DNA from: a virus
Lineage: Duplodnaviria; Heunggongvirae; Uroviricota; Caudoviricetes
Length of the DNA stretch: 54,417 nucleotides
Virus record (IMG/VR): IMGVR_UViG_3300009784_000001
Location: 1-54,417 of that record
Strand: one strand, 5' to 3'
The notes under the pieces are model-generated. The model was not told the origin of the DNA. It saw nothing but the letters and a program-made list of their open reading frames with translations, and did no database searches. The translations under genes were made by a program, and so were the position numbers. Numbering within the stretch: position 1 is the first letter of the stretch; the number at the start of each line of letters is the position of its first letter. Below, piece after piece: positions 1 through 37,101 of the stretch.

Positions 1-59
1 CGAGTTATCGGTATACGTATGCGTCTGCGTTTGCGGGTTGCGCCTCTCGCCTACACTTG
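1..59 (+). repeat. DGR variable region VR1 (partial)
   Basis: Aligns to TR 204-256 with a 6-nt insertion; every substitution is at a TR adenine. Confidence 0.9.
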
Positions 60-137
60 CCCACAGAATGGGCTGTGAAATATGTTTATAATATAAATCA
101 AGAGTTCTTTGGTTATTGGAAAGAATATATGCGTTAA
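1..137 (+). CDS. 3' end of DGR target gene 1 (partial, cut by window start)
   Basis: Frame from nt 3 reads SYRYTYASAFAGCASRLHLPTEWAVKYVYNINQEFFGYWKEYMR*, homologous to the C-terminus of ORF 14094..14552 (AGCASRLYLP...WKEYML). Not in the ORF track. Confidence 0.85.
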   Translation, partial: SYRYTYASAFAGCASRLHLPTEWAVKYVYNINQEFFGYWKEYMR

Positions 138-166
138 ATTAAAAAGGTTGTTTGTTTTTATAGAGG

Positions 167-256
167 TGGTTTTATCTGGATTCTCCTTTTCAGTTCAATG
201 ATACGAATTATCAGAATACGAATACGAATGCAGGTTGCACCTCTCACCTAAAATTG
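167..256 (+). ncRNA. DGR template region (TR)
   Basis: Intergenic, rich in AAT/ACG triplets, directly upstream of the RT; 74/90 identical to 14394-14483 with all 16 mismatches at TR adenines. Confidence 0.95.
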
Positions 257-285
257 TTTAAGAGATTAAAATAAAGACAAAGACC

Positions 286-299
286 TTACCTCTTGGTAA
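286..299 (+). other. Hairpin in the TR-RT spacer (candidate DGR RNA structural element)
   Basis: ttacc-tctt-ggtaa stem-loop 30 nt downstream of TR; function inferred only from position. Confidence 0.45.
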
Positions 300-374
300 A
301 AAATAGCTTTTTTTGATTATGGAGTATTGGTAAATTTTATATTGAAGATTCTCTAAAAATGCAAGTGTAAATCT

Positions 375-1661
375 ATGAAAAGAGTAAATAATTTATTTAA
401 TAAAATTGTTGAAGAAGAAAATATTTACAAGGCTTATGAAAGAGCTAAAAAGCATAAAAGTAATAGAAAAGAAATAAAAATCTTTGAAAAGAATTTACAT
501 CTTAATTTAACAGAAATAAAAGATGAATTAACACATGGTGAATATAAAACATCTAAATATCATATTTTTACTCTATATGATCCAAAAGAAAGAGTAATTT
601 ATAAATTACCTTTTAAAGATAGAATAGTTCATCATGCAATAATGAATGTATTAGAAAAGGTATGGCTTTCTGTATTTATTTCTAATACATTTTCTTGTAT
701 AAAGGGCAGAGGAATTCATGCTTTAGTATATAAATTGAAAGATGATTTAAAAAATAATATAGAAGAAACTACATATTGCCTTAAATTTGATATTAAAAAG
801 TTCTATCCAAGTGTTAATCATGATATACTTAAATCCATTATTAAAAAGAAAATAAAAGATAAAAGAGTATTGAGTTTATTAGATGAAATTATTAATTCTG
901 CACCAGGTTTACCTATTGGAAATTATTTATCACAATATTTAGCTAATCTTTATTTGAGTTATTTTGATCACTGGCTGAAAGAAACAAAAAAAGTAAAGTA
1001 TTATTATAGATATGCAGATGATCTTGTAATATTACATAAAGATAAAAAATATTTACATGACTTGTTAAGTGATATTAAAGAATATTTGGCTGATAATTTA
1101 TTGCTTGAAGTTAAGCATAATTACCAGATATTTCCAGTAGAAAAAAGAGGGATAGATTTTGTAGGATATGTTTTTTATCATACTCATTTACTTTTGAGGA
1201 AAAGAATAAAGAAAAATTTTTGTAGAAAAGTAAGTAAATTAAATAAAAAAGATATATCTTTGAAACAATATAAACAAAAAATTTGTTCTTGGTTTGGATG
1301 GCTGAACCATTGTAACTCTAACAATTTAATAAAAAAAACTCTTATGAATAAATTTGCAGATTTTAATATTTCAGTGAATGATAAGACAATATTTAATGTA
1401 CCAAAAGTATCTATTACTGATTTAGTTAATAAAGAAATTGAAATATTGGATTATCAATCAAATATAACTACTTCACAAGGAAATGGAAGATATATTGTAA
1501 AGATTAAAAATGGTAATGTACAACAGAAATTCTTTACCAATGCTTCTCCCTTAAAAGATGCTTTGAAACAAGTTAAAAAAGAACAATTTCCATTTACTAC
1601 TACTATAAAGAATAAATCTTATGATGAAAATGGAAATAAAAAAACTTATTTTTTTACTTAA
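375..1661 (+). CDS. DGR reverse transcriptase with extra C-terminal domain
   Basis: Motifs LPFKDRIVHHAI, KGRGIH, CLKFDIKKFYPS, GLPIGNYLSQ, YYRYADD; adjacent TR; residues ~324-428 lie beyond the RT core. Confidence 0.95.
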   Translation: MKRVNNLFNKIVEEENIYKAYERAKKHKSNRKEIKIFEKNLHLNLTEIKDELTHGEYKTSKYHIFTLYDPKERVIYKLPFKDRIVHHAIMNVLEKVWLSVFISNTFSCIKGRGIHALVYKLKDDLKNNIEETTYCLKFDIKKFYPSVNHDILKSIIKKKIKDKRVLSLLDEIINSAPGLPIGNYLSQYLANLYLSYFDHWLKETKKVKYYYRYADDLVILHKDKKYLHDLLSDIKEYLADNLLLEVKHNYQIFPVEKRGIDFVGYVFYHTHLLLRKRIKKNFCRKVSKLNKKDISLKQYKQKICSWFGWLNHCNSNNLIKKTLMNKFADFNISVNDKTIFNVPKVSITDLVNKEIEILDYQSNITTSQGNGRYIVKIKNGNVQQKFFTNASPLKDALKQVKKEQFPFTTTIKNKSYDENGNKKTYFFT

Positions 1662-1666
1662 ATCAT

Positions 1667-2071
1667 ATGAAAATAGTTAAACCAGAAGATATTTTAAAGA
1701 AAAAAAATGAGTCTTTAAAATTTAAAAAAGAAGTAGAAAAGTTAACAGAAAAAATTAATGAAAAGATAGAAACTTATTCTAGTCTTTTATGTGATTATGG
1801 AAAATTATATTTTGAAATGGATAATAATAATTTTTGTTTTTATTCAGAAAATGTTATTAAAAACGTTCAATCTTTATTTAGAGAAGCTGGATGGAATTTT
1901 TCATATAAAATGAATAAACATGAAGAATTATTACAAAATAGTTTAACTCATAAAGAAAGCTGGGGCGTAGTAACTCCACAAACAAAAATAATAAATACTA
2001 TTGAATTTACTATTGAATCTGATTTATTAAAAAGTTCAACATTTCCACAATATATAGGAGAAGAGCAATGA
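1667..2071 (+). CDS. hypothetical protein
   Basis: ORF tightly packed after the RT. Confidence 0.7.
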   Translation: MKIVKPEDILKKKNESLKFKKEVEKLTEKINEKIETYSSLLCDYGKLYFEMDNNNFCFYSENVIKNVQSLFREAGWNFSYKMNKHEELLQNSLTHKESWGVVTPQTKIINTIEFTIESDLLKSSTFPQYIGEEQ

Positions 2072-2583
2072 AAACAAGTGATGAATTGAAATATAAAAAT
2101 TATAATGTAGGAGTAATTGTGGGAAGATTTCAAGTTCCTGAATTACATAAAATGCACAAAGATTTAATTCGATCAGTTTTAGATAGACATGAAAAAGTTT
2201 ATATATTTCTTGGAATACCAAAAAATAATGAATTAACTGTTTCAAATCCTTTACCATTTGATGCAAGGCAGGAAATGATTGTTACTGAATTTCCTGATGT
2301 AAAAGTATTATTCATAAAAGATAAAGAAAGTAATCAGGAATGGGTAAATAATTTGGATGATCAAATTCAAAGTATTACTACTTCTTTTGATAAAGTTACA
2401 GTATATGGAAGTAGAGATAGCTTTCTTAATACTTATTTTGAATGTAAAGGAATATATCCATCTACTGAATTAATTTCTACTGAAAGATTATCTGGCACTG
2501 AATGTAGACATGATATAGCTCGAAAAACAATTAATTCAGTTGATTTTAGAAAAGGGATAATTTATGCGATTTTGAATAAATGA
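2068..2583 (+). CDS. NadM-like cytidylyltransferase-family protein (putative NMN adenylyltransferase)
   Basis: GVIVGRFQ..LHKMH (HxGH-like), NPLPF, YGSRDSF, SGTECR; no Nudix domain follows. Confidence 0.75.
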   Translation: MKTSDELKYKNYNVGVIVGRFQVPELHKMHKDLIRSVLDRHEKVYIFLGIPKNNELTVSNPLPFDARQEMIVTEFPDVKVLFIKDKESNQEWVNNLDDQIQSITTSFDKVTVYGSRDSFLNTYFECKGIYPSTELISTERLSGTECRHDIARKTINSVDFRKGIIYAILNK

Positions 2584-2813
2584 AAATAATAAGAGATAAT
2601 ATAAATGATGATTGCCCATCCAATGATTTTGAGATTGGAGAGCCTAATGGAAATTGTATGGGTGATGGACATTATATGTGTGATGAATGTAAACATTTCA
2701 GGAACGATTTTCATAAAGATAAAGAATTTAGGGAAGCAGTTATGTCTCCTAAAATGTTTTATTTCAAAACTTATGATATTGAAAACAACACAATATTTGT
2801 AAATTCATTTTGA
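2580..2813 (+). CDS. small Cys-rich hypothetical protein
   Basis: CPSNDF...CMGDGHYMCDECKH, probable metal-binding. Confidence 0.65.
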   Translation: MKIIRDNINDDCPSNDFEIGEPNGNCMGDGHYMCDECKHFRNDFHKDKEFREAVMSPKMFYFKTYDIENNTIFVNSF

Positions 2814-2839
2814 AAAAACTATTTTTTAATATATATTTG
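2809..2839 (+). promoter_or_regulatory. Bacteroidota-type -33/-7 promoter
   Basis: TTTG 2809-12, 19-nt spacer, TAtaTTTG 2832-39; ATG at 2844. Confidence 0.65.
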
Positions 2840-2843
2840 TATT

Positions 2844-3242
2844 ATGGAAGATAAGAAAATGGATAAAGTAGTGATTGGAACATGGGAAGATTTTTTTCGT
2901 TGTATTTTTCAATCAAAAAAAATAGGAAATTATAAAACTTATCAATCTTTATTGAAATATTGTTTCAAAGATAATGTAGTAAAATATTATAATTTAGAAT
3001 ATTATATAAAGTATTTTCGTAGAGTTAAATTCATTTATAGCACTTATAGTTCAGTATTTGATTTTGTTATATATGAAGATTCTTATTGTAAAAATGAATA
3101 TTTGGAAATAAATCACTTCAAGAAAATAGGAAAAAATGTAAGAGAAAGAATTGAAAGAACTGTTGAAAAAGAAAAGATTATTGAAAATAATCCTATATTA
3201 AATAAAAGTTATTTTGATGATATAAAAAATATAAAATTTTAG
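2844..3242 (+). CDS. hypothetical protein
   Basis: ORF directly after promoter. Confidence 0.7.
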   Translation: MEDKKMDKVVIGTWEDFFRCIFQSKKIGNYKTYQSLLKYCFKDNVVKYYNLEYYIKYFRRVKFIYSTYSSVFDFVIYEDSYCKNEYLEINHFKKIGKNVRERIERTVEKEKIIENNPILNKSYFDDIKNIKF

Positions 3243-3245
3243 AAT

Positions 3246-3653
3246 ATGGAAGATAAAAGTAAAGAAGCAAAAAAGTATGAATTAACTATTAAAAAGTTAA
3301 GAGGAATTTTAAAATCGGATAATGTTAGTTTACCAACAAAAGTTCCTGCAAATGAATTGCAAACATTAGTAGAAGAATTATTTAAGGAAGAAAATGAAAA
3401 CAATGTAAAATTGTTAAAAGAACAATTGAGAGAACTATTGAAGAAACATGTTCAGATGGAAAGTGGAATTAAAGAGAAAGAAAAAGAATTGGCTAAATTA
3501 AAAAAAGAAAAACAAGCCGAATTTGTTAAGGCATCAGAAGAATTATTTAATAAAATATCTGATATTGACAGTCTTACTTCTCAATATGGTGAATCTCTTA
3601 AAAGTGCTATGGGAGAGGATACTGAGGAAGATATAGAAGTAGATGCGGAATAA
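3246..3653 (+). CDS. coiled-coil hypothetical protein
   Basis: E/K/L-rich heptad pattern, acidic tail. Confidence 0.7.
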   Translation: MEDKSKEAKKYELTIKKLRGILKSDNVSLPTKVPANELQTLVEELFKEENENNVKLLKEQLRELLKKHVQMESGIKEKEKELAKLKKEKQAEFVKASEELFNKISDIDSLTSQYGESLKSAMGEDTEEDIEVDAE

Positions 3654-3673
3654 TCCATGTTTGTTTATTGTTG

Positions 3674-3710
3674 AAGAACATTTCTTGAAAAGGGGATGTT
3701 CTTTTTTTTT
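3674..3710 (+). terminator. intrinsic terminator
   Basis: aagaacat...atgttctt stem followed by a T-run. Confidence 0.6.
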
Positions 3711-3718
3711 AATGTTAT

Positions 3719-3764
3719 TTAACACTTTATATATTTGATAATTGAAATATTTTTTGTATCTTTG
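3719..3764 (+). promoter_or_regulatory. promoter with upstream TTAAC element
   Basis: TTAAC 3719-23, TTTG 3734-37, 19 nt, TAtcTTTG 3757-64. Confidence 0.75.
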
Positions 3765-3768
3765 TAGT

Positions 3769-4911
3769 ATGTTAGAAAATATAATAAATAAAGAAACTTT
3801 TGAAGTTAATTGGAATTTGGTTGAACAACTTCCAGATTTTGTTTTACTTAAAAAAGGTGGCTATCATGCTGATTGGCATGGTGAAGGAAATTCTTATATT
3901 CATACGCAAAATGTAGTAAATGCTGCTTATACTTTACCTGAATGGAATGAATTAGTTAATAGAGAAAAGTATATTTTAATATGTGCTTGTTTATTTCATG
4001 ATATTGGTAAAGGAGTTTGTAATACAATGAAAGAAGATGGTAATTGGTCAGCTCCTCATCATGCAAAAACAGGAGAAAAAATAGCAAGATATTTGTTATG
4101 GGATGAACCTTTTGAATTAAGAGAAATGATTTGTTCTTTGATAAAATATCATATGAAATTTACTTATTTAATTGAAAAGGAAGCAAGTGAGATTGATAGA
4201 ACTGTTGTTGAAATTTCATTAAATTCCAATGTTAAATTACTTTATTTATTAAATAAATGCGATAGTTTAGGGGCAATTTCTATTGATAGAGAAGATACAT
4301 TAATCAAAAAGGAATTATTGAAAGAAAGAGCAATTGCATTACATTGTTTTGATGAACCATTTGAATTTCATAATGATATAAGTAAGTTTCATTATTTCAA
4401 TAGTAATGAAAATAATTCTTCCCCATATCTTCAATTATTTGATGATACAAAATTTGATATTTATATAATGTCAGGAATTGCAGGTAGTGGAAAAAGTTAT
4501 TACTTAAAAAACAATTTATCTTCTTTGCCTATTATTTCAAGAGATATAATTAGACAAGAACTTGGTTTTGTAGATGCTAATGGTAAATTCAAAGGCGATA
4601 AACAACAAGAAAGTAAAGTAACTGAAATAGAAGAAGAAAAAATAAAGGAATGTTGTAGAAATAAACAATCCTTTGTATATGATAATATGTCAATTAAAAA
4701 GATGTGGAGAGATAAATTTATTAATCTTGTTCTTCCTTATAATCTTAAAATTCATATTGTGTATGTTGAAACTTCTAAAGAAAATAACATTATGAGAAGA
4801 AAAGGACAGATTGCAAAAGATGCTATTATTAAGATGCAAAGGGATTTAGAGATGCCTCATTTAACTGATTGTCATAAAATTATTTATTCTTTAAATGATA
4901 GAAAAATATGA
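3769..4911 (+). CDS. HD-domain / P-loop kinase fusion (polynucleotide kinase-phosphatase-like)
   Basis: HADWHGEG..YIHT, CLFHDIGK (HD), then GIAGSGKS Walker A and SRDIIR. Start moved from 3742 to ATG 3769 because the promoter overlaps 3742-3764. Confidence 0.8.
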   Translation: MLENIINKETFEVNWNLVEQLPDFVLLKKGGYHADWHGEGNSYIHTQNVVNAAYTLPEWNELVNREKYILICACLFHDIGKGVCNTMKEDGNWSAPHHAKTGEKIARYLLWDEPFELREMICSLIKYHMKFTYLIEKEASEIDRTVVEISLNSNVKLLYLLNKCDSLGAISIDREDTLIKKELLKERAIALHCFDEPFEFHNDISKFHYFNSNENNSSPYLQLFDDTKFDIYIMSGIAGSGKSYYLKNNLSSLPIISRDIIRQELGFVDANGKFKGDKQQESKVTEIEEEKIKECCRNKQSFVYDNMSIKKMWRDKFINLVLPYNLKIHIVYVETSKENNIMRRKGQIAKDAIIKMQRDLEMPHLTDCHKIIYSLNDRKI

Positions 4912-5156
4912 AAATATTATTTAGTAGAGTTGATGCAGATGAATGTTATGAAGTAGAAGATATGAAGTTTTTACCTCAAAAGGGAAACTTCATCTTCTTT
5001 GATGCTATTTGTTATAAAATAATTAATACAAAATTTGTTATAGAAGACAATGTTAATACTGATGTAGTAATTTATATGGAACTAACTACACAAAAACATT
5101 ATATGAAAAAAATTGGATTTTTAAAATCTATAAAAATAAGAAAAAATGGTAAATAA
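4908..5156 (+). CDS. hypothetical protein
   Basis: Overlapping start/stop with neighbours. Confidence 0.65.
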   Translation: MKILFSRVDADECYEVEDMKFLPQKGNFIFFDAICYKIINTKFVIEDNVNTDVVIYMELTTQKHYMKKIGFLKSIKIRKNGK

Positions 5157-5403
5157 CATTTTTTATGATGAAATAGCTGATACCATTCTTGATATTTTGA
5201 TAGGATATGATGTTGATAATATTCAATATAAAGAACATGTTGCATATACTAAAAAATTTATGCAATATGTTCCTGTTGAACTTGAAAATGAAATAAAAGA
5301 AACATTTATAGAAAATGGAAAAAATCTATGTAGTGGAAGTTATAATGCTTTATACAAATATTATAGAAATAAAATAAATGATTTAATAAAAGACAAATTA
5401 TGA
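5146..5403 (+). CDS. hypothetical protein
   Basis: Overlapping start/stop with neighbours. Confidence 0.65.
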   Translation: MVNNIFYDEIADTILDILIGYDVDNIQYKEHVAYTKKFMQYVPVELENEIKETFIENGKNLCSGSYNALYKYYRNKINDLIKDKL

Positions 5404-5813
5404 AGAATAAAAATATATTAAAAGAAGAACAATTATTTGAAAAAATAATTCCATATTGTTCAGAGAATTTTGTAACAATTCCTTTGTGGGAAGAAGGGGA
5501 TCTACGTCCAAATTTGAATATATGGCAAGTTCCACAAGGTAATACTCCTTCTGATTGTTATAATTCTTACAATAAAATTATCAATTCAATATATGAATTT
5601 TTTGTGGATACTGGATTTGATTATGAAATAGAGGATGATTTTTCTTTTGAAGATAGATTATTGCCTTGCAATATGAAGAATAGTTTCAATATTAAAATAT
5701 ATCAAATAGGTTATATTTTGGATGAAGATATAATACCAAATTATTCGATAATTGAATTAATGAAAATTGCAGTAGATTTATTAGATTATTTGAAAAGTGA
5801 AGATAGAAAATAA
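5400..5813 (+). CDS. hypothetical protein
   Basis: Overlapping start/stop with neighbours. Confidence 0.65.
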   Translation: MKNKNILKEEQLFEKIIPYCSENFVTIPLWEEGDLRPNLNIWQVPQGNTPSDCYNSYNKIINSIYEFFVDTGFDYEIEDDFSFEDRLLPCNMKNSFNIKIYQIGYILDEDIIPNYSIIELMKIAVDLLDYLKSEDRK

Positions 5814-6615
5814 TAAATATTATACACCTGATGAAGTTGCTCAACAATGTATTGAATGGGTATATGACTATATTGATGGGAATGATATAACTGAATGGGT
5901 TGAACCTGCTGCTGGAAGTGGTTCTTTCTCTAAAAAGATTATAGGCTGTAAAGCATATGATATTGAACCAGAAGATTCATCTATTATTAAACAGGATTAT
6001 TTAACATTAGAAGAAACTTATAAAAAAGGAAGAATATATATTGGCAATCCACCATTTGGAAATAGGAATTCATTATCATTAAAATTCTTGAAAAAGAATA
6101 TGTTTTATGGGGATTATATTGCTTATATTCAACCAATATTATCATTGGGCGGTTCTTTACAATTTTATGAATTTGATTTAGTATTTTCAAGAGATTTAGG
6201 AATAATTAATTTTAGTGGAGTTAAATTACATTGCTGTTACAACATCTGGCAAAGAAGAAAGGATGGATTATTAAATAAAAAACCTAATCATAAATTAAAT
6301 TCTGTCATAATTAAGGAATATAGAAGAAACAAGAAAAATGATAATGATCATTTTTGTTATAATGTTAATTCTATTGATAAGAATTATGATTATGCAATGT
6401 GTAATTGGGGAAGTGGCACATTGGGAAAAGTTCCAGAATATGTGGGGCAATATGCACAAGAAGTTTATTTTTATCTTAAAGATAAATCAAAGTTACCATT
6501 ATTAAAACAGTTATTAGAATATAATACAATCCGAAGTTATTGCAAGAATATTTCAATGAAAAGATTATGTGTTTCCCGCATTTATATATATTTATATAAA
6601 AATGGTTTTATTTAA
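5797..6615 (+). CDS. SAM-dependent amino-DNA methyltransferase-like protein
   Basis: YYTP, WVEPAAGSGSF (motif I), GNPPFG (motif IV). Confidence 0.75.
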   Translation: MKIENNKYYTPDEVAQQCIEWVYDYIDGNDITEWVEPAAGSGSFSKKIIGCKAYDIEPEDSSIIKQDYLTLEETYKKGRIYIGNPPFGNRNSLSLKFLKKNMFYGDYIAYIQPILSLGGSLQFYEFDLVFSRDLGIINFSGVKLHCCYNIWQRRKDGLLNKKPNHKLNSVIIKEYRRNKKNDNDHFCYNVNSIDKNYDYAMCNWGSGTLGKVPEYVGQYAQEVYFYLKDKSKLPLLKQLLEYNTIRSYCKNISMKRLCVSRIYIYLYKNGFI

Positions 6616-7601
6616 TGAAAAAATGTTCTAATTGTAAGAATAATATTGAAGCTAATAATAGTGAAGTAATTAAAATTAATACACGAACTTTTTGTTGTAT
6701 TAAATGTAAAGAAGAATTTTTTAAAAAATGGTCCAAAAAAATTAAAGAAAAAAATTTAGAAAAATATGGAAATGAATGTAGTTGGAAAGCAGATAAGATA
6801 AAAGAAAAAATAAAATATTCTAATTTTAAAAAGTATGGAGTAGAATATTCTAATCAATGTAATAGAGTGATTGAAAAAAGAAAAAAAAGTAATTTAGAAA
6901 AATATGGAGTAGAATATGGATTTCAATCAAAAGTAATAAAAGATAAAATAATAAGCACAAATATTAAAAAAAGAGGGGTGAAAAACCCAATGCAAGATGA
7001 AGAAATAAGGAATATAGTAAAATCTACTTGTTTAAAAAAATATGGTGTTGAAAACCCAATGCAAGATGAAGAAATAAGAAATAAACTTTCTTTAATTATT
7101 GAAGAAAAATATGGTAAGAAATATTATTTTCAAACGGATGAATTTTTGGAATATTGGAAAAAGAATGAAGAAAATATTTTAAAAAAACAATTTGATGCAA
7201 AAAGAAAAAATAATTCTTTTCATATTTCAAAAATAGAAGATAGATGTTATGAATTATTAATTAACAAATTTGGTAAAGAAGATATTGAAAGAAATTATAA
7301 TAAAGATAGAAGATATTTATTTTTATGCGATTTTTATATCAAGTCGTTAGATTTATTTATAGAATGTAATTTTCATTGGACGCATGGAAAAGAACCTTTT
7401 GATGAAAATAATATACAACATCAGGAAATATTAAATATTGCTAAAATAAAATCGTTGAAATCAACATATTGGAAAACTTTCATAGATATTTGGGTAATAA
7501 GAGATAAAATGAAAATAAGAATAGCAAAAGAAAATAATATAAATTATTTAATGTTTTACACATTTAAAGAATTTGAAAATTGGTTTAATAAATTAAAATA
7601 A
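6615..7601 (+). CDS. putative homing-type endonuclease (Zn finger, KKYGV repeats, C-terminal PD-(D/E)XK)
   Basis: CxxC...C-C-C N-terminus, repeated EKYGVEY/KKYGVENPMQ units, CDFYIKSLDLFIECN. Confidence 0.65.
   Translation: MKKCSNCKNNIEANNSEVIKINTRTFCCIKCKEEFFKKWSKKIKEKNLEKYGNECSWKADKIKEKIKYSNFKKYGVEYSNQCNRVIEKRKKSNLEKYGVEYGFQSKVIKDKIISTNIKKRGVKNPMQDEEIRNIVKSTCLKKYGVENPMQDEEIRNKLSLIIEEKYGKKYYFQTDEFLEYWKKNEENILKKQFDAKRKNNSFHISKIEDRCYELLINKFGKEDIERNYNKDRRYLFLCDFYIKSLDLFIECNFHWTHGKEPFDENNIQHQEILNIAKIKSLKSTYWKTFIDIWVIRDKMKIRIAKENNINYLMFYTFKEFENWFNKLK
6982..7078 (+). repeat. 28-bp direct repeat inside CDS (69-bp period)
   Basis: aaaacccaatgcaagatgaagaaataag at 6982-7009 and 7051-7078. Confidence 0.9.
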
Positions 7602-7604
7602 AAG

Positions 7605-8099
7605 ATGAAAAAATTAGTTTTAATAATTGGATTGTTATTAACAGCAATTATGTTTGTAAATGCTCAAACTGGTGATAACATGGTAGCTGGTTGTAAAGGT
7701 GTAACAGCTAATATAAATGGATTGAATGGGCAATTAGGATTTGGAGAAGATAAAACAAGAGATATATCTGTTGGATTCAGTGGCTATTATGTATTAATAG
7801 ATAATATTGCACTTAATGTTGGGGTTAATTTTGATTATAATAATACAAGTAAATTAACATTTAGTCCTTCTATTGGATTGAAAAAACATTGGAAAAATGA
7901 TTTTCTTGCAGCTATTTCTTATGAAGGAATGACTTATAATGGTGATTCTTATAAAAATAGTATTAAACTTGAAGGAGGTTATGATTATTACTTTACTAAA
8001 ACATTTTATCTTGAACCATCAATTTATTATCAGAGGTCTTTAGGAGTAAACAGTATAGATAGAATAGGATTATCAATAGGAATTGGATTTTGCTTATAA
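7605..8099 (+). CDS. outer-membrane beta-barrel protein with signal peptide
   Basis: MKKLVLIIGLLLTAIMFVNA signal peptide, alternating Gly/aromatic strands, terminal IGIGFCL. Confidence 0.7.
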   Translation: MKKLVLIIGLLLTAIMFVNAQTGDNMVAGCKGVTANINGLNGQLGFGEDKTRDISVGFSGYYVLIDNIALNVGVNFDYNNTSKLTFSPSIGLKKHWKNDFLAAISYEGMTYNGDSYKNSIKLEGGYDYYFTKTFYLEPSIYYQRSLGVNSIDRIGLSIGIGFCL

Positions 8100-8701
8100 T
8101 AAAAAACATGGAAGAAGAAAAAATTGTACCAAAAATAGGAGATATATATTATCAGTATTATGAGGGAAAAGGATTAATAAAGTTTGAAATAACTAATATT
8201 AAGGAAGGGAACCTTTATCCCATACGTTTTAAAGCATTAGATCATCCTGAATTTGATTATACATTTGAAACAATGGTTTCTGAATGGAGTTTGAAAGAAA
8301 ATTATTCTAGGGATGAAATAGATGCTTATCGTCAATATTATCAAGAATTAGGTGAAAAACTTAAAGGATATAAAAAAATTGTTGATGATATAAAAAATGA
8401 AAGAAATGCAATATATGAAACTATTCAAAGCATGATTTCATTGGAATTAATAAGAAATGGATGTTTTTTTAGATTTGACAATTTAAATTTCTTTGAAATG
8501 TGTGCTGATAAAGCAAGAGAAGATGCAAAAGATACTATTAAGAATTATATGCACTCATTTCAAGAAGTAACAAAAAGTTTTAGCCCTACTAATGATACAC
8601 AAGAAGAATTTGATACTCTTGTTAAAGAAATATCAGAGAAAGTAGTTAAAGAAGAAAAAATAATTTCTCATGAATATATAATGAGATATGGAAGATTATA
8701 A
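8090..8701 (+). CDS. hypothetical protein
   Basis: Long ORF in operon; start may be 8108. Confidence 0.65.
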   Translation: MLIIKNMEEEKIVPKIGDIYYQYYEGKGLIKFEITNIKEGNLYPIRFKALDHPEFDYTFETMVSEWSLKENYSRDEIDAYRQYYQELGEKLKGYKKIVDDIKNERNAIYETIQSMISLELIRNGCFFRFDNLNFFEMCADKAREDAKDTIKNYMHSFQEVTKSFSPTNDTQEEFDTLVKEISEKVVKEEKIISHEYIMRYGRL

Positions 8702-9368
8702 AACAAAATATCCAAGAACTTATCATTTACCATTTTCGTTAGGATTACAAAATGATGATAAAATGGTAAAGGAAGGATGGGAAAAGTATATAATAGGAGA
8801 GAAAAATGAAATAGTAATTACAGAAAAACTGGATGGGGAAAATGTTGCTATCTCAAAATATGGCGCTTTTAGTAGAAGTCATGCAGCATCAACACTGCAT
8901 CCATGGACAAAGAATATATGGGAACAAAATGGAATTTATGAACAGGTTAAAACTTGGTTAGATGAAGATGTTATGATATATGCTGAAAATTTATATGGGA
9001 TTCATTCAATAGAATATAATAAATTATCTTCTTATATTTTTATGTTTGCATTAAGAGAAAGAGAAATATGGAAATCTTGGGATGATGTCTTAGAAATGAG
9101 TAATATATTAGAATTACCTACTGTTCCTATTTTATATAAAGGAAAAGTTTCTTCTTCAAATGAACTGGAAAATATTATAAATGAAATAATGAAAGGTAAA
9201 TCTGAATATGGTGATACTATTGAAGGAGTAGTTGTTAGAAATATAAATGAATTTCATTATAATGATTTCTCAAAATATGTTGTTAAATATGTAAGAAAAA
9301 ATCATGTTCAAACTGATGAACATTGGAAGAAAAATTGGAAAAGAGCAAAATTAATTTATGAAATCTAA
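8688..9368 (+). CDS. RNA ligase family nucleotidyltransferase
   Basis: KYPRTYHLP, ITEKLDGEN (motif I), EGVVVR, KYVR. Confidence 0.85.
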   Translation: MEDYKTKYPRTYHLPFSLGLQNDDKMVKEGWEKYIIGEKNEIVITEKLDGENVAISKYGAFSRSHAASTLHPWTKNIWEQNGIYEQVKTWLDEDVMIYAENLYGIHSIEYNKLSSYIFMFALREREIWKSWDDVLEMSNILELPTVPILYKGKVSSSNELENIINEIMKGKSEYGDTIEGVVVRNINEFHYNDFSKYVVKYVRKNHVQTDEHWKKNWKRAKLIYEI

Positions 9369-9528
9369 AACTTGGATTGAAAAAGTAAGAAAAATGGCAA
9401 TGATTTTTATTGAAGATTTTTCAGATTATGATAAATTAACAAAAGAAGAAATTAAAATGATTGGTTGGATACAGACCAGTATTTTTAATGATTTGGGCGA
9501 TTGGGATGATTTAAAAGAAAAAAAATGA
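9358..9528 (+). CDS. small hypothetical protein (56 aa)
   Basis: MKSKTWIEK...DLKEKK*, fills the gap with overlaps on both sides; below the ORF-track cutoff. Confidence 0.55.
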   Translation: MKSKTWIEKVRKMAMIFIEDFSDYDKLTKEEIKMIGWIQTSIFNDLGDWDDLKEKK

Positions 9529-10343
9529 TTAATAAAATAAAATTTGAAAATATTATAGGGTTAAATTTCTGTGGTGATATTCATGGAGAATTTGAAAATC
9601 TTGTATATCAAATTACTGATAGATATAAGATGGAAAATACTGTAACTATTTGCTGTGGAGATATAGGTATGGGATTTAATAAAGATGAATATTATTTTCA
9701 AGTATTTCTTAAATTAAATAAAAAATTAATTAAGGATAATAATTATGTTATTTTTTTAAGAGGAAACCATGATAATGCTGATTATTTTAACAATGAAGGA
9801 AAAACAAATCTATTCAGAAAATATAAACAAATCCATTTAATTCCTGATTATACAATTATTGAACTTAATAATATTATTAATGTTTTATGTATTGGTGGCG
9901 CAACATCAGTTGATAGAGTTGATAGAATAGCTGCTGAAAGACGAAAATGGGGAAAGAAAATATATTGGGAAAATGAAATAGTTATATATGATGAAGACAA
10001 ATTAAAGGAAATTAATGAATTATATCCATGTAATATACAAATAATTGCCACTCATACTTCACCAGATTTTTGTTATCCGACTACAAAACAAGGAATTATG
10101 GGGTTTTTGTTGAAAGATAATCAATTAAATGATGATTTAAATATTGAAAGGGGATTAATAACTAATATATTTAATTATTTAGTAGATAATGGGCAAGTAA
10201 GTATATTAGAATGGTGGTACGCTCATTTTCATGAGTACAAAAGAGAAAATATTAATGGTATTAATTTTATCTTGTTAGATTGTAATCAAATAATGGAAAG
10301 TCCATTATTTAGAAGTTTAAATAGTAAAAAAGATGAATATTGA
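9525..10343 (+). CDS. metallophosphoesterase (calcineurin-like)
   Basis: GDIHG, CGDIG, RGNHD, THT, AHFH motifs. Confidence 0.9.
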   Translation: MINKIKFENIIGLNFCGDIHGEFENLVYQITDRYKMENTVTICCGDIGMGFNKDEYYFQVFLKLNKKLIKDNNYVIFLRGNHDNADYFNNEGKTNLFRKYKQIHLIPDYTIIELNNIINVLCIGGATSVDRVDRIAAERRKWGKKIYWENEIVIYDEDKLKEINELYPCNIQIIATHTSPDFCYPTTKQGIMGFLLKDNQLNDDLNIERGLITNIFNYLVDNGQVSILEWWYAHFHEYKRENINGINFILLDCNQIMESPLFRSLNSKKDEY

Positions 10344-10692
10344 AACAATTATATTATGTTTATTTAAGAAATCAGAAGCAATTATTTCTAAGCCTTCTCA
10401 AATTCATAAAGCCTTTTATAAAGTAAAATATTTACCTAAGTACAGAGACTTACTTAAAACCTTATTATTTACTGGCTCTCCAGTCAATCCATTTTCAGAA
10501 AAATTAAATGAAATATTCTTTAATTTACAGTATGTAGATGCTATTCATTTACATGGTAATGAATTAGGAACTTATGTTATTACAGAAAATTTTAAAGAAT
10601 TATATGAAGATTCAATAAAAGATATAGATTCAATAACATTAGAAAGAATTGGAGAAATGTGTGAGTATATTTTGGAATATATGAGAAATTAA
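10333..10692 (+). CDS. hypothetical protein, possibly winged-helix
   Basis: IHKAFY...PFSEKL pattern loosely resembles SocA/DUF4065-like proteins; weak. Confidence 0.45.
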   Translation: MNIETIILCLFKKSEAIISKPSQIHKAFYKVKYLPKYRDLLKTLLFTGSPVNPFSEKLNEIFFNLQYVDAIHLHGNELGTYVITENFKELYEDSIKDIDSITLERIGEMCEYILEYMRN

Positions 10693-10738
10693 AAAATATG
10701 TTTTCAATATATTAATGGTAATAATTAAAAAGAATATT

Positions 10739-10770
10739 TTTGTTATTACCATTTTTTATTTATATTTTTG
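10739..10770 (+). promoter_or_regulatory. -33/-7 promoter
   Basis: TTTG 10739-42, 20 nt, TAttTTTG 10763-70. Confidence 0.6.
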
Positions 10771-10787
10771 TACTAAATGTTAAAAGT

Positions 10788-11306
10788 ATGGAAAAATTAA
10801 AGTATAGAATGTATTTTTTGGTAATGTATAATCTTTCACCAATTCAACAAGGGATACAAGCGGGGCATGTAAGTTTAGAATATGTTGATGAATATGGAGA
10901 TACTAAAGAATATAAAGATTTTTTTGAAAATGATAAAACATGGATAGTTTTAAATGGTGGCACATCTAATGATATGTTACAACATTATAGTTATTTAAAT
11001 AATGAACTTGAAATTAATGTTTCATTTTTCTTGGAACCTGATTTAAATGAATCAATGTCAGCTATTTGTTTTTTAGCTGATGAAAGAATTTGGGATAAAG
11101 AAAAATATCCTGATTTTTTAGATTACTGTGATACAGAACTAAAAAATTGTATTCACCCACAAGAGCCATCAAAATTATTATTAGGAATGTCATTAGTATA
11201 TGATCCTATAGAAAAAGATGAACTTTATAAAAAATGGGTTGAAAGTATTGGTGGAGAAACTAATGCAAAATTAAGAGAATTTTTAAAAAATAAAAGATTA
11301 GCTTAA
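10788..11306 (+). CDS. phage peptidyl-tRNA hydrolase 2-like protein
   Basis: MYFLV..LSPIQQGIQAGH, KTWIVLNGG, FLEPDLN..MSAICF. Start moved to ATG 10788. Confidence 0.6.
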   Translation: MEKLKYRMYFLVMYNLSPIQQGIQAGHVSLEYVDEYGDTKEYKDFFENDKTWIVLNGGTSNDMLQHYSYLNNELEINVSFFLEPDLNESMSAICFLADERIWDKEKYPDFLDYCDTELKNCIHPQEPSKLLLGMSLVYDPIEKDELYKKWVESIGGETNAKLREFLKNKRLA

Positions 11307-11310
11307 ATAT

Positions 11311-12051
11311 ATGAATAGAATTTTTAATATTTTAGTAGTTGGAAATAATCCCCAAGAAATAGTTGAAAAATATGATCTTAATAGAGAAATAGAACCTTAT
11401 ATTTTATATAAGCTAGATGATATGAATAAAATTTATGAGAACAAAGTTTATTTATATGAATCTGTTTTAGCTTCTAAAGATAGAATTGATATTGAACTAT
11501 TAAAACAAGCACAATTATGTTTAAAGAGAATTAAACAATTAACTCCTTTTACATATTATCAAGAAATGTCACAATATTATATTCTTGATGAAAAAACAGG
11601 AGATTTATTAACTACTGAAAATCCATTAGGAAAATATGATACTATTGGACAAGATACTTTACTTTTAGTTGGAGATGAAGAAATATCTCAAGCATATAAA
11701 AGAGATATTAATTTTGATAAATTGCATAGAAATCAAAATAGATTAAATCTTCAAGAAAGAGCTTATGATTTATGTGTAAATCTTCTTGATCCAGAAGATG
11801 AAACAGATAAATTAATTCTTCAAAATATGGGGGATTTGAACTCTCAAAGTTATTTTGATAGATTTGATGACAAAGAAGAATATGCCTTATATTGTGAATC
11901 GATGGGATTTTATGCTTTTGTAACTGATAAAGAATGGATTGAAATTCCATCTATTCAAAATGAAATTCCATGGAAAATTAATTTTTATGATAAATTTATA
12001 AAAGATTTACCAGATAATGATTTATTAACCACTTATGTATGTACGAAGTAA
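11311..12051 (+). CDS. hypothetical protein
   Basis: Long ORF in operon. Confidence 0.7.
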   Translation: MNRIFNILVVGNNPQEIVEKYDLNREIEPYILYKLDDMNKIYENKVYLYESVLASKDRIDIELLKQAQLCLKRIKQLTPFTYYQEMSQYYILDEKTGDLLTTENPLGKYDTIGQDTLLLVGDEEISQAYKRDINFDKLHRNQNRLNLQERAYDLCVNLLDPEDETDKLILQNMGDLNSQSYFDRFDDKEEYALYCESMGFYAFVTDKEWIEIPSIQNEIPWKINFYDKFIKDLPDNDLLTTYVCTK

Positions 12052-12353
12052 ATATAATTCCACCAGCTCAATGGATTGAAAATGAATATGAAATAAAAGA
12101 TGAATATTGTGATAGATTAAAATCTTTGAAAGATAAAATTTCTGTATTGTTAAGTGAAAACTTGGGGAAGTTTCTAACCAGATCTCAACTTACAGATGTT
12201 TATTATACTTTAGATAGTATTTTTAATGAATATAAATTAGATAATTTGAAATACAAAATAGATAGTTTAAATAATGAAGTATTTATTACTTCTTTGGATT
12301 TTAATACTTATTGTGTATTTCAAAATTTGCTTAATAATAAAATAGAAATATAG
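12039..12353 (+). CDS. hypothetical protein
   Basis: ORF in operon. Confidence 0.6.
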   Translation: MYEVNIIPPAQWIENEYEIKDEYCDRLKSLKDKISVLLSENLGKFLTRSQLTDVYYTLDSIFNEYKLDNLKYKIDSLNNEVFITSLDFNTYCVFQNLLNNKIEI

Positions 12354-12357
12354 AAAA

Positions 12358-12819
12358 ATGGAAACAATTAAATTTAGAGCTAAAGATGAAGATACTAATG
12401 AATGGTTATATGGATATTATACTGAATTTGCTACAAATGAAGGAAGACAAGTTAACGTTATTGTTACTGAAGAAAGTAAATATAGAAAGGCATTAGGAGT
12501 TATACCTTATACACTTGGACAATTTAGTAGCTTCTATGATAAAGATAATAATGAAATATATCATGGAGATATATTAGAATTATCATTAGAAAATGACAAA
12601 GTAATAAAAGTAATTTGTTGGTTTGGGAATGCTCAAAGAACATTATATTATGGAGAATTTGTGGAAATAAGAGGTTTTTCTTTTATTGTTCCTGGTGGCA
12701 AAAGAAGTTTTCCTGTAATAGAAAATTATCAGGGTAAACATGATGTAGAAATTATGAAAATAATAGGAAATATATGGGATAATTCTGATTTAATTGATAA
12801 AGATGAGTATAAATTATAA
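12358..12819 (+). CDS. YopX family protein
   Basis: IKFRAKD..W.YG, TLGQFS..DK...EIYHGDIL, IIGNIWDN. Confidence 0.85.
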   Translation: METIKFRAKDEDTNEWLYGYYTEFATNEGRQVNVIVTEESKYRKALGVIPYTLGQFSSFYDKDNNEIYHGDILELSLENDKVIKVICWFGNAQRTLYYGEFVEIRGFSFIVPGGKRSFPVIENYQGKHDVEIMKIIGNIWDNSDLIDKDEYKL

Positions 12820-13501
12820 TGATATAGTTCGTTCTATTAGCTATGACCAAAACGAAATATTATATAATATTTTGAAATTATATAATAATGGAAATGATTT
12901 TGATTGTGATCCAACTTATTCAAAAGGTGGATTTTATAATAAAAGTAAAGAATTCCCTGTTAATTCTCCTAAATATAAATTTGATGTTTTTCCTATTATA
13001 AATGGAGTTGAAAAGATTGAACCATTAGGTAAATTTCCATTGGATGATGATTCAATTCAATCAATTAATATTGACTTACCTTTTGTTTGCGCTCCGCCAA
13101 ATGCTCCTTCTATGAAAAGAGAAGGAAAAGAACATAATATTATTCAAAGAAGATTTGTAAGCTATTACCCTATTCAAGAAATGTTTAAGTCTTATTATCA
13201 TTTCCTTGAAGAAAGTTTTAGAGTATTGAAACCAGGAGGAATTTGTATATTTAAAACTCAAAGAAATATTAGTGGAAGTATTACTTATATGACACCCCAA
13301 TATTCATGGATGTGTGCAGAAAAAATAGGTTTTTATACAATAGATGAATTTATTTTATTAGCAAGAAATCGCCTTTGGTCAGGAAAAATTAAAGAGCAAC
13401 AACATAGTAGAGCATTTCATTCTTCATTTTTCGTTTTTCAAAAACCAATTAGCAAGAGATTTAGAACAGTAGATTATTTCAAATGGAAAGAAAATGTTTA
13501 A
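12803..13501 (+). CDS. DNA methyltransferase-like protein
   Basis: DCDPTYSKGGFY, IDLPF, RVLKPGGICIFK. ATG 12803 preferred. Confidence 0.7.
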   Translation: MSINYNDIVRSISYDQNEILYNILKLYNNGNDFDCDPTYSKGGFYNKSKEFPVNSPKYKFDVFPIINGVEKIEPLGKFPLDDDSIQSINIDLPFVCAPPNAPSMKREGKEHNIIQRRFVSYYPIQEMFKSYYHFLEESFRVLKPGGICIFKTQRNISGSITYMTPQYSWMCAEKIGFYTIDEFILLARNRLWSGKIKEQQHSRAFHSSFFVFQKPISKRFRTVDYFKWKENV

Positions 13502-13513
13502 TAATAAGAATAA

Positions 13514-13558
13514 TTAACATAGAATATTTGGTTATAATATAAAAAAGTTTTACCTTTG
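13514..13558 (+). promoter_or_regulatory. promoter with upstream TTAAC element
   Basis: TTAAC 13514-18, 8 nt, TTTG 13527-30, 20 nt, TAccTTTG 13551-58. Confidence 0.8.
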
Positions 13559-13600
13559 TAAAGTAAAACTTAATGAATAAAAAGATAGGTTTTGTGAAAA

Positions 13601-14092
13601 GTGAATTATATAAGAGATATTAGTGATGAACAATTAATTCAAGGAAAATTTGTGGAAAATATATTTAAAACAAAATTAAGAGAATATTTTAATACAGCAG
13701 AAGTTGTAGATGCAACTCCTGAACAAGATATGAATGAACATTGGGATATTCAAGTTAATTTGAAGTTTGATGTCAAAGGTTTGAAAAAAGTTAGAAGAAA
13801 TGATAACAAAACTGATGAAAATTTTCATTATATCGAGTTAAAAAATGTTCAAGGAAAAACTGGGTGGCTATATGGAGAAGCTACACATTTTTCATTTGAA
13901 ACTGATGATTATTGGATAATTGTAGAAAAATCTGCTCTTCAAGAATTCATAAAAATTAAATGTAAAGAGAAAATTAAGTGTACTGTTCCTACTTTATATC
14001 AACTATATACTCGAAAAAATAGAAAAGATGTTATAGTATTGGTAAAAACAATAGACTTAATGGCAATAGCAAATTTTATAATAAATAAATAA
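13601..14092 (+). CDS. PD-(D/E)XK-type nuclease-like protein
   Basis: EHWD...DVKG, IELKN..G..GWLYGEA. Confidence 0.6.
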   Translation: MNYIRDISDEQLIQGKFVENIFKTKLREYFNTAEVVDATPEQDMNEHWDIQVNLKFDVKGLKKVRRNDNKTDENFHYIELKNVQGKTGWLYGEATHFSFETDDYWIIVEKSALQEFIKIKCKEKIKCTVPTLYQLYTRKNRKDVIVLVKTIDLMAIANFIINK

Positions 14093-14093
14093 T

Positions 14094-14552
14094 ATGGAAC
14101 TGAAAATAAATGTAGATGATTGTAGTTTATCTAATAAACTTGTGAAATTTTTGAAAGATAATAACATTTGTGTAAATATAACACACAAATCTTTTAATTC
14201 ATATAAAGATATTACATCTTTTGAAGATGCTTTGGAATGTTTGGGAGAAGTGGATGAATATGTTGATTATCATGCAGTAGTTAAATCTCATCATTATGCT
14301 TTATATAAATTGGAAACAATTATTAAAGCTATCAATAAGATTGAAAATTGGGAACCAAATTGGCAAAATTACAATCAAAAAAAATGCTATCCTTGGTTTT
14401 TTCTGGGTTCTCCTTTTCGGTTCTTTGATACGTATTATCGGAATGCGTTTACGTATGCGGGTTGCGCCTCTCGCCTATACTTGCCCTCCTCAGAAATAGC
14501 AACTTATGTAGGAAAGGAATTTTTAAATTTGTGGAAAGAATATATGCTATGA
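14094..14552 (+). CDS. DGR target protein 2 (remote target)
   Basis: Contains VR2; ITSFEDA, YKLETIIKAIN, WEPNW..NQKK.YPWF; paralogous to target 1. Confidence 0.9.
   Translation: MELKINVDDCSLSNKLVKFLKDNNICVNITHKSFNSYKDITSFEDALECLGEVDEYVDYHAVVKSHHYALYKLETIIKAINKIENWEPNWQNYNQKKCYPWFFLGSPFRFFDTYYRNAFTYAGCASRLYLPSSEIATYVGKEFLNLWKEYML
14394..14483 (+). repeat. DGR variable region VR2
   Basis: 90-nt ungapped match to TR 167-256; 16 mismatches, all at 26 available TR adenines. Confidence 0.95.
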
Positions 14553-14734
14553 AAATGGAAATTGTTGGATTACATAATTTTGAATTTGAATTAGATGGTG
14601 AGAAATTTAAAATGGATGCTTCTTTTGATGAAGAAAAAAGAAAGCTAGATATCTATCTTACAAAGTATCCTAAAATCTCACATATTGATATAAAATTTAC
14701 AATAACAAAAGAAGGAGAATTTATTAATGAATAA
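14549..14734 (+). CDS. small hypothetical protein
   Basis: ATG 14549 overlapping the previous stop; in frame with track ORF 14462..14734. Confidence 0.55.
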   Translation: MKMEIVGLHNFEFELDGEKFKMDASFDEEKRKLDIYLTKYPKISHIDIKFTITKEGEFINE

Positions 14735-36507: not shown

Positions 36508-37101
36508 TCATTTGTTTTCGTTTTTCTTTCTTCTTTTCAAGTTGATTGGTTTAGCTTTATCATAGTTAAATCCTTCAAGACCAATACTAAACTTGCCATC
36601 ATGCCATCCTAAAAATAATGTAGAATGATAGTAACTTTTAACTTTATTAATTGGTTTAAATTCAATTATAATTTTATTATCTCTCCTATGTCCTGTAACT
36701 TCTTCAAATTTATTTAATAATTTTTCTCCAAATTCTTCAAGAAGATCATGTTCAGGAGTTTTACCATTATGACTTTGTTCTAGTAACCGAACCCTTGTAG
36801 CAGAAGGATAATAAAAAAAAGAGATGAATTCAAAGTCTACTGCTTCAAGTAACATTTGAAGTATTGCTTTCTTATTAGAATAATTTTCCCAATTTCCAAC
36901 AATTGCTTCATAAAGATTATCATCTTCTTTATCTACCTCTTTTTTAAGTTCTTCAATTTTTTCTCTTGCTGCTTCACCTTCTTCTACTCTTGAAGATTGC
37001 CAACCATGTGAAAAAGCAAGACCCATTAAATCATTCAATTCTTCTCCCAATAATTTAATGTATTCATCATATGCTGTAAATAAATTGTTATGTGCTTCCA
37101 T
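36508..37101 (-). CDS. hypothetical protein
   Basis: ORF after promoter. Confidence 0.7.
   Translation of the reverse strand: MEAHNNLFTAYDEYIKLLGEELNDLMGLAFSHGWQSSRVEEGEAAREKIEELKKEVDKEDDNLYEAIVGNWENYSNKKAILQMLLEAVDFEFISFFYYPSATRVRLLEQSHNGKTPEHDLLEEFGEKLLNKFEEVTGHRRDNKIIIEFKPINKVKSYYHSTLFLGWHDGKFSIGLEGFNYDKAKPINLKRRKKNENK

Follow-up and report, generated by a model that had tools for sequence, protein, structure and literature searches.

The window, that is, the whole stretch of 54,417 nucleotides analyzed here (IMG/VR record IMGVR_UViG_3300009784_000001, positions 1 to 54,417), carries at its start a complete and genuine DGR, which belongs to a circularly assembled 360-kb phage. The record is 359,943 bp long, begins with the window, and its end repeats its start in an exact 123-bp overlap. 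The whole genome showed a single RT, a single TR, and three members of the phrog_11581 family, each with a VR (family HMM and tblastn), in agreement with an earlier note on this DNA, which had proposed that one RT serves dispersed small paralogs in trans. Taken as a whole, the explanation that this complete DGR diversifies three small proteins acting off the virion, inside the infected cell, is given a somewhat better than even chance of being correct.

The Template Repeat and Its Three Variable Repeats

The TR (167..256, plus strand) is the only one of the genome and is non-coding. It contains 26 adenines and five AAT codons in the frame of the targets, and stops are possible from one of its codons only. 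VR2 (14394..14483, plus strand), which encodes residues 101-130 of the 152 residues of the second target (T2), matches the TR over 90 nt without gaps, and its 16 mismatches are all at TR adenines (16 of the 26), exactly as the earlier note had described. The search of the whole genome for further VRs, which had been proposed in the same note, revealed VR3 beyond the window (genome 71261-71350, minus strand), with 17 mismatches to the TR, 17/17 at A.

The 3′ part of VR1 is located at 1..59 (plus strand). Due to the 123-bp terminal overlap, VR1 and the gene of the first target (T1) continue from genome 359247-359943 into window 1-137, with VR1 itself lying across the circular junction (genome 359782-359943 and window 1-59). 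In full, VR1 is 96 nt long and begins 37 nt before the junction. The previous description of 1-59 as differing from the TR at adenines only is valid for the substitutions, but it needs a 6-nt insertion to be allowed, as VR1 has one extra 6-nt unit (ACGAAT-type). Compared with a third template unit, this extra unit differs at A only, and an indel of a whole repeat unit with A-only differences fits slippage in cDNA synthesis.

When the three VRs are pooled, 0/64 non-A template positions are changed, whereas 21/26 A positions are changed in at least one copy. The proteins around the VRs are only ~40% identical to one another, and therefore this pattern is explained neither by chance nor by ordinary paralogy. 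The VRs are found 0.1, 14, and 71 kb from the TR, the third one on the opposite strand. Between the stop codon of T1 and the TR there are only 30 nt.

A GC-rich, IMH-like block of 19 nt has the same sequence in all three VRs (33..51 in VR1 and 14457..14475 in VR2, both plus strand). The respective IMH*-like block of the TR (230..248, plus strand) carries A at three sites that are G in all of the VRs, and the same A(TR)/G(VR) pattern is found in related cassettes. All TR/VR differences in this block are at A, so that both an IMH role and selection for the GSRL motif fit. In total, seven A positions show an identical change in all three VRs and can be read either as IMH differences or as the outcome of selection. 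Four of the seven fall within the GC-rich 3′ block or further 3′; these are probably fixed differences of the IMH/IMH* type and not fresh mutagenesis.

The spacer of 118 nt between TR and RT (257..374, plus strand) is known by position only and is presumed, after the BPP-1 model, to be part of the TR RNA. An Rfam search of 1-16000, including this spacer, returned zero matches, and a promoter scan performed no better than on shuffled sequence. Exact-word scans of the VR2 flank against viral contigs and of the IMH-like block against metagenome contigs retrieved no near-identical copies.

The Target Proteins and Their Family

The three targets are proteins of 152, 174, and 236 aa. The 3′ end of the T1 gene occupies 1..137 (plus strand) of the window; the gene starts at genome 359247 and encodes 236 aa in all (family HMM E 6.6e-30). 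T2 (14094..14552, plus strand) encodes 152 aa (family HMM E 1.3e-41). All three match phrog_11581 (E 1.2e-19 for T2, 2.8e-12 for T3, and 4.1e-6 for T1), and in each the VR occupies the same place near the C-terminus. Downstream of the VR, 22-25 residues keep a common pattern, but they are not invariant as had been stated before for some 20-25 residues. A candidate for a fourth paralog at 36700-37077, found by tblastn at E 0.12, did not pass the family HMM.

The phrog_11581 family is un-named, has no Pfam entry and no function annotation, and its profile matches span a core of ~115 aa. At E≤1e-3 the family has 3997 cluster representatives, of which 2328 remain at E≤1e-10, and most of these proteins are 120-160 aa long. 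This large family of soluble proteins has no solved relative. Among 121 family members, no shared Pfam family was found and 0/121 match any Pfam model, in contrast to the small target nd12_tgt2, which carries DUF6273. At HMMER-level sensitivity, none of the 121 showed a lectin-type Pfam domain (FGE-sulfatase, DUF1566, DUF6273, Mtd) at E≤0.1, and when PDB sequences were searched with the family profile, no hit had an E value under 0.26 and no such lectin-type sequence was matched at E≤10. The structure of T2, whose prediction had been suggested in the earlier note, was modeled by AF2 with a pLDDT of 84, and no solved fold was found to match the model.

A hydrophobic segment is absent from 120/121 family members. 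In accordance with what had been noticed before about fiber features and signal peptides, T1-T3 have no fiber features, Pfam domain, or hydrophobic leader. No longer, fused forms of the family were found among the relatives listed, which is weak evidence. The GSRL motif at the end of the VR recalls lectin-fold VRs. When the family was compared by hhalign with the fiber of LoVEphage (a Bacteroides phage resembling Quimbyvirus), the alignment was confined to the 24 columns encoded by the VR.

Gene Neighborhoods and the Place of Action

T2 has two RNA ligases, a metallophosphoesterase, a hydrolase, and a DNA methyltransferase as neighbors, in agreement with the methylase and RNA ligase genes which the first reading had placed around it. 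T1 is preceded by genes for an exonuclease, a sigma factor, a kinase, and an RNA-binding protein, and T3 is located within a block of small unknown ORFs. According to the gene neighborhoods of all three, none is placed in a tail or structural module. Upstream of related cassettes there are primase, RecT, or ParB genes, and downstream of them methylase, Ant, or head genes. The VR-bearing homologues of Bacteroides phage Versailles and LoVEphage are found in recombination and methylase/RtcB regions.

Action off the virion and inside the cell seems most likely because the targets occupy early, DNA/RNA-metabolism, and accessory regions and because virion-anchoring and export features are absent. 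In the mechanism proposed here, the RT would copy the TR RNA with random misincorporation opposite adenines, and the cDNA would replace ~20 codons close to the C-terminal end of every target, giving ~2e11 peptide variants. Homing would be guided by the GC-rich 3′ block which is common to the VRs and absent from the TR. The products would then work away from the virion, within the infected cell, as variable binders, for example of host defense or takeover targets, and not as receptor-binding tail tips. It is the gene neighborhood that suggests both the intracellular action and the binding of host defense or regulatory proteins.

The main alternative, which we regard as rather unlikely, is that the small proteins bind ligands on the virion or after release, as minimal lectin-like receptor-binding or adhesin modules on fibers, on the capsid, or outside the cell. 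In that case, the DGR would serve the recognition of host or environment as in BPP-1, with genes that are merely unlinked. One TR serves both an RT-adjacent tail collar fiber and a small protein in LoVEphage, and an RT-adjacent gene and a small protein in Versailles. The two LoVEphage products have ~40 VR-coded residues in common, ending in GSRL. A TR shared with an RT-adjacent gene, together with the GSRL ending, would also fit an extracellular ligand. Furthermore, the Versailles protein WAK79127 is annotated as a "tail protein" (HHpred vs PHROGs), the distal, non-structural DGR target of Quimbyvirus has been called lectin-fold (Benler et al. 2021, Microbiome 9:78, PMC8008677), and small DGR targets of another family have been modeled as C-lec domains (PMC10743442). 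On the contrary, 0/3 genes are found in the structural module, related cassettes stand at the end of replication modules, phrog_11581 has no assigned function, and the relatives listed show neither an anchoring domain nor a fusion to fiber domains.

Phage DGRs are usually explained as tail-fiber tropism switches. A bolder version of the intracellular explanation, which we hold to be doubtful and offer as speculation, is that the family is an unrecognized, non-lectin DGR scaffold of intracellular, pre-diversified binders against host defense or takeover targets, and that cassettes with small targets only represent adaptive counter-immunity and not tropism switching. If this were true, a large class of phage DGRs would serve counter-immunity instead of tropism. 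In cultivable carriers such as Bacteroides phage Versailles, the role of targeted hypermutation outside the tail could be worked out.

It seems improbable that the proteins are variable sensors whose role is superinfection exclusion or defense, protecting an infected cell or a lysogen from competing phages, and not tools against host immunity. Many carriers are temperate, with genes for a CI-type repressor and an integrase adjoining the cassette in one related locus (L008) and in LoVEphage, and cellular DGR targets have been linked to defense or signaling (discussion in PMC8008677). However, the family members listed show no effector domain and no fusion, and the targets of the present phage adjoin RNA-repair and methylase genes, which usually counter host defenses.

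Related Cassettes and Activity

The VR is placed inside a gene of the family in 70/80 related viral loci; in the sequence scanned at these loci, the targets detected are small, soluble proteins whose genes accompany those for replication and accessory functions. As a rule, two or three of these targets stand in tandem immediately before TR and RT. Between near-identical loci, almost all differences fall on template-A positions within the VRs, which shows that this type of cassette is active. For instance, over 2846 nt L022 and L024 have 20 differences; every one of these falls in one of the two VRs, and 19 are at template-A positions. Similarly, 13 of the 14 differences between L036 and L021 and all six between L058 and L059 are found inside VRs. 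On the evidence of such comparisons, the phrog_11581 family is the regular target of the same RT clade in other phages and is being rewritten there in nature.

The perfect non-A identity between TR and VRs and the behavior of the relatives suggest that the element is currently active in this genome as well. That it is a recently inactivated relic, with VRs recording past homing and genes that are now ordinary paralogs, would agree with the 6-nt indel of VR1, but it has little probability given the intact RT frame with its catalytic motifs, the lack of drift at the non-A positions despite diverged flanks, the demonstrable activity of closely related cassettes, and the explanation of the indel through slippage.

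Comparison with Known Systems

The element resembles that of BPP-1 (Mtd, Avd, TR, Brt) in the A-specific transfer from TR to VR, the position of the VR near the 3′ end of the target ORF, the GC-rich 3′ block of the VR which differs from the TR, the GxxxSQ motif of the RT, and the adjacency of the first target, TR, and RT. It differs in having small soluble targets and not a trimeric fiber-tip protein, three targets of which two are remote and one is on the other strand, and an OB-like domain in place of Avd. In addition, a hairpin or cruciform was detected only after VR1, where it is weak (z -2.1), with none convincing after the remote VRs.

LoVEphage is a closer relative. Its distal target belongs to the same family (T2 matches QVQ57199 by tblastn), with the VR 15 kb from the TR, methyltransferase, nuclease, and RNA ligase neighbors like those found here, and an RT of a related clade. 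LoVEphage, like Quimbyvirus in its published description, diversifies a tail-fiber target and has the small protein as a second one, whereas the present genome has no structural target and carries three paralogs up to 71 kb from the TR in 360 kb. In Roseburia phage Shimadzu, a second, non-tail VR was experimentally shown by sequencing to be diversified (bioRxiv 10.1101/575076). The target of this VR2 (orf43/44) is likewise a second target outside the tail module with unknown function, as is nd12_tgt2, but both belong to other protein families.

The novelty implied by the earlier note was consequently overstated, since LoVEphage carries a distal target of the same family, Shimadzu provides a precedent, and the cassette with small targets only is common in public viral contigs. 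The idea of a small, non-tail DGR target is already known. What is added here is its presence in 70/80 loci, the activity of the relatives, the lack of a match to solved folds, and the OB-like domain. In this way, the odd, remote second target of Quimbyvirus becomes the main target of a common cassette.

The Reverse Transcriptase and Its Accessory Domain

The RT ORF (375-1661) has an intact frame. Its DGR RT core (375..1343, plus strand) matches RVT_1 (E 3.6e-21) and phrog_1423 (E 1.3e-128) and contains the DGR-type [I/L/V]GxxxSQ motif 4 and YxDD as IGNYLSQ (915-935) and YADD (1011-1022), respectively. The RT is 50-63% identical to the RTs of related cassettes and crAss-like phages, the core showing 50-58% identity to the latter. 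The RT of Hankyphage (Bacteroides phage p00) is 36% identical over the full length, including the fused C-terminal domain. The targets differ in both cases: that of Hankyphage is a very large virion-type protein and that of cr52_1 an Mtd-like tail protein, neither being of the small family.

No Avd-type Pfam match was found in the RT, the ORF at 1667-2071, or the neighbors, and Avd is not universal among DGRs. The C-terminal accessory domain fused to the RT (1344..1661, plus strand; 105 aa; phrog_19665) is OB-fold-like. This conserved domain, placed after the RT or fused to it, is present in place of an Avd gene, and it may bear on how this RT clade works. The RT of LoVEphage is split over three frames, in contrast to the single ORF fused to the accessory domain found here. 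In L022 the OB-like domain is a separate, overlapping ORF after the RT, and most related cassettes apparently have it in this separate, overlapping form as well.

One Template, One Reverse Transcriptase, and Three Targets

The whole genome has one reverse transcriptase gene (RT, 375–1661) and one template repeat (TR), and they serve three target genes with variable repeats (VRs), as expected from the earlier note's claim that a single diversity-generating retroelement (DGR) acts in trans on several small non-fibre paralogs. The TR (167–256) aligns with VR2 (14394–14483) over 90 nt without gaps, and all 16 mismatches are located at template adenines (16 of 26). A search of the whole genome for more VRs, tolerant of changes at A, detected exactly one additional full-length copy, VR3 (genome 71261–71350, minus strand), with 17 mismatches to the TR, all at A and 0 elsewhere.

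The source IMG/VR virus record (359,943 bp, 26% G+C, with the window as its bases 1–54417) begins and ends with the same 123 bases, which marks it as a circular or circularly permuted assembly with an arbitrary cut. The cut falls within the first target gene, and BLAST places VR1 across this junction, from genome 359782 onwards and then in window 1–59. The adenine-only differences described earlier for window 1–59 hold provided that a 6-nt extra unit, absent from that description, is taken into account. Within genome 359819–359943 and window 1–59, VR1 has six extra bases, the ACGAAT units being two in the TR and three in VR1; against a three-unit template, every difference is at A. Such a pattern suggests slippage of the RT on the repeat during cDNA synthesis.

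When the three VRs are pooled, none of the 64 non-A template positions differs in any copy. The 26 template A positions are divided into 14 which vary among the VRs, 7 at which all three share one change, and 5 unchanged. Because the three target proteins are only ~40% identical outside the VR, the perfect non-A identity must have been imposed by TR transfer after the divergence of the paralogs. We regard it as settled, with hardly any doubt, that the element is a genuine DGR and diversifies several small non-fibre paralogs in trans. A jumbo phage in which small non-structural proteins are the only DGR targets, three in number, located on both strands and at distances of up to 71 kb, is new.

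The Target Protein Family

T1 (genome 359247 to window 137, 236 aa), T2 (14094–14552, 152 aa), and T3 (genome 71192–71713, minus strand, 174 aa) all match phrog_11581, a family of no assigned function, and none of them matches Pfam. The family HMM over the 360-kb genome retrieves only these three. T1 has an extra N-terminal part of ~110 residues (genome 359247–359579; 966–1298 of L003, the stretch holding the start of T1), missing from T2 and T3; this domain shows a weak match to phrog_13450 and no match in Pfam.

A search with the family profile matched 3997 of 1.8 billion cluster representatives at E ≤ 1e-3, of which 2328 reached E ≤ 1e-10. Most of the 150 matches listed are 120–160 aa long and some are tandem doubles of 250–350 aa; proteins P0005–P0016 of this search include such doubles, with two domain copies within one protein. 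A weak search for longer fused forms of the family turned up none. A hydrophobic segment is absent in 120 of the 121 aligned members.

The earlier note had asked whether T2 resembles a C-type lectin or adopts a new fold. The AF2 model (pLDDT 84, pTM 0.75) has helices at residues 14–22, 43–50, 65–83, and 133–151, and the VR (pLDDT 64–74) lies within a long irregular stretch (84–132). No convincing match to a solved structure was obtained, and in libraries of predicted structures only uncharacterised relatives match. The lack of any solved-fold match for the target model is a further novelty. A cellular relative (AFDB A0A6A2FL84) is automatically named SMI1/KNR4, an immunity-protein superfamily; such an identity for the family is supported neither by Pfam nor by structure searches.

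Related Cassettes and Their Activity

Among the best 80 related loci in IMG/VR, the RT is 50–63% identical to that of the window in 69, and a VR is found inside a family gene in 70. Usually, two or three tandem small targets are followed by the TR and, ~100–200 nt further, by the RT; in two loci a target is located 6–9 kb away. Primase, RecT/HNH, or ParB genes are found upstream, and methyltransferase, PAPS-reductase, Ant, and head genes downstream. In L008, a metagenomic phage contig of 70.8 kb, a single TR (14248–14330) precedes a 302-aa RT, and VRs at 7819–7901, 8316–8388, and 14069–14140 lie in small genes of 131–157 aa, one of which is a family member. Two of these VRs, with HTH and repressor genes as neighbours, lie 6 kb away from the TR (region 7493–15407).

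Near-identical relatives differ almost only in their VRs. The related loci L022 and L024 show 20 differences in 2846 aligned bases, all 20 in two VRs and 19 at template-A positions. Respective comparisons placed 13 of 14 differences (L036 vs. L021) and 6 of 6 (L058 vs. L059 and L060) in VRs. Hence, this type of cassette rewrites the protein family in nature, and it is new that a widespread, active cassette has this family as its primary target. Exact-word scans of viral and metagenome contigs retrieved no near-identical contigs of the window's own phage. Its DGR is likely still active, judging from the sequence identity of its repeats and from its relatives.

Site of Action of the Target Products

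T2 is flanked by genes for an RNA ligase (8688–9368), a metallophosphoesterase (9525–10343), a hydrolase (10740–11306), a DNA methyltransferase (12794–13501), and a second RNA ligase (14727–16097). This set (8688–16097) resembles a module for RNA repair and anti-restriction, such as those that counter anticodon nucleases. The genes upstream of T1 code for an exonuclease, a sigma factor, a kinase-like protein, and an RNA-binding protein, and the neighbours of T3 are a series of small unknown ORFs on its own strand. The best-supported reading of these contexts, which we hold as somewhat probable, is an intracellular action of the target products, away from the virion.

With T2 as tblastn query, the Bacteroides phages Versailles and LoVEphage each yielded a single gene. 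The Versailles gene (WAK79127) belongs to the recombination module, and the LoVEphage gene (QVQ57199) has methyltransferases and RtcB as neighbours. Each carries a VR matching an RT-adjacent TR, 44 kb away in Versailles and 15 kb in LoVEphage, and the same TR also serves an RT-adjacent gene, which in LoVEphage is a tail collar fibre. In LoVEphage, the fibre and the small protein have in common only the ~40 residues coded by the VR. In part because one TR can act on a fibre and on this protein alike, a minimal lectin-like binder, virion-associated or extracellular, is a serious rival to an intracellular role, if a rather unlikely one.

The LoVEphage RT (MW660583, 47660–48984, minus strand; L012–L014) was matched as three pieces in three frames, which the record annotates as separate hypothetical proteins. 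An RT split over three frames, with two presumed programmed frameshifts, is a published hallmark of Quimbyvirus (PMC8008677), and in this LoVEphage is alike. Since its small target sits in a Quimbyvirus-like phage, the literature offers the earlier idea a direct precedent within this protein family, which limits the novelty of remote non-structural targets. Such phage DGR targets are already published (PMC8008677; 10.1101/575076), as are small targets from a different family (PMC10743442).

The RT and Its Accessory Domain

The RT matches RVT_1 and phrog_1423 and has the motifs IGNYLSQ and YADD. The closest annotated RTs are those of crAss-like phages (50–58% identity over the core); with the Hankyphage RT, the identity is 36% over the full length. 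The RT and the neighbouring ORFs showed no Avd-like protein against Pfam. Residues 324–428 (1344–1661, plus strand, 105 aa) match phrog_19665, and a domain of this type is likewise fused to the RT in Hankyphage. In locus L022 it is a separate ORF in another frame, overlapping the RT stop, an arrangement that most related cassettes seem to share, judging from coordinates. The AF2 model of the domain is a beta-barrel, with OB-fold ssDNA binders as best neighbours at modest Z (5–6). We count as new this predicted OB-like domain, which would stand in place of Avd.

The 3′ Block of the Repeats

All three VRs have a common 19-nt GC-rich block (window 33–51 in VR1 and 14457–14475 in VR2), and three positions of its TR counterpart (230–248) hold A. 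Related cassettes have the same pattern, A in the TR and G in the VR, at equivalent places. In the established BPP-1 model, the IMH/IMH* pair (the GC-rich 3′ end of the VR and its TR counterpart) has such an appearance, and a pair of this type would account for the invariance of the residues AGCASRL. Alternatively, the differences may be due to selection rather than IMH, since these changes also create the nearly invariant Arg of the family. With either IMH or selection, some of the 16 mismatches of VR2 probably represent fixed differences. Diversification is free approximately in repeat codons 3–21, which allow, as computed, ~2e11 peptides.

Among the three VRs, only VR1 is followed by a hairpin, and a weak one. 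It is located at window 62–77, in the terminal part of the T1 gene, as a short GC stem followed by a T-rich run, and is the sole terminator-like site in 1–2200.
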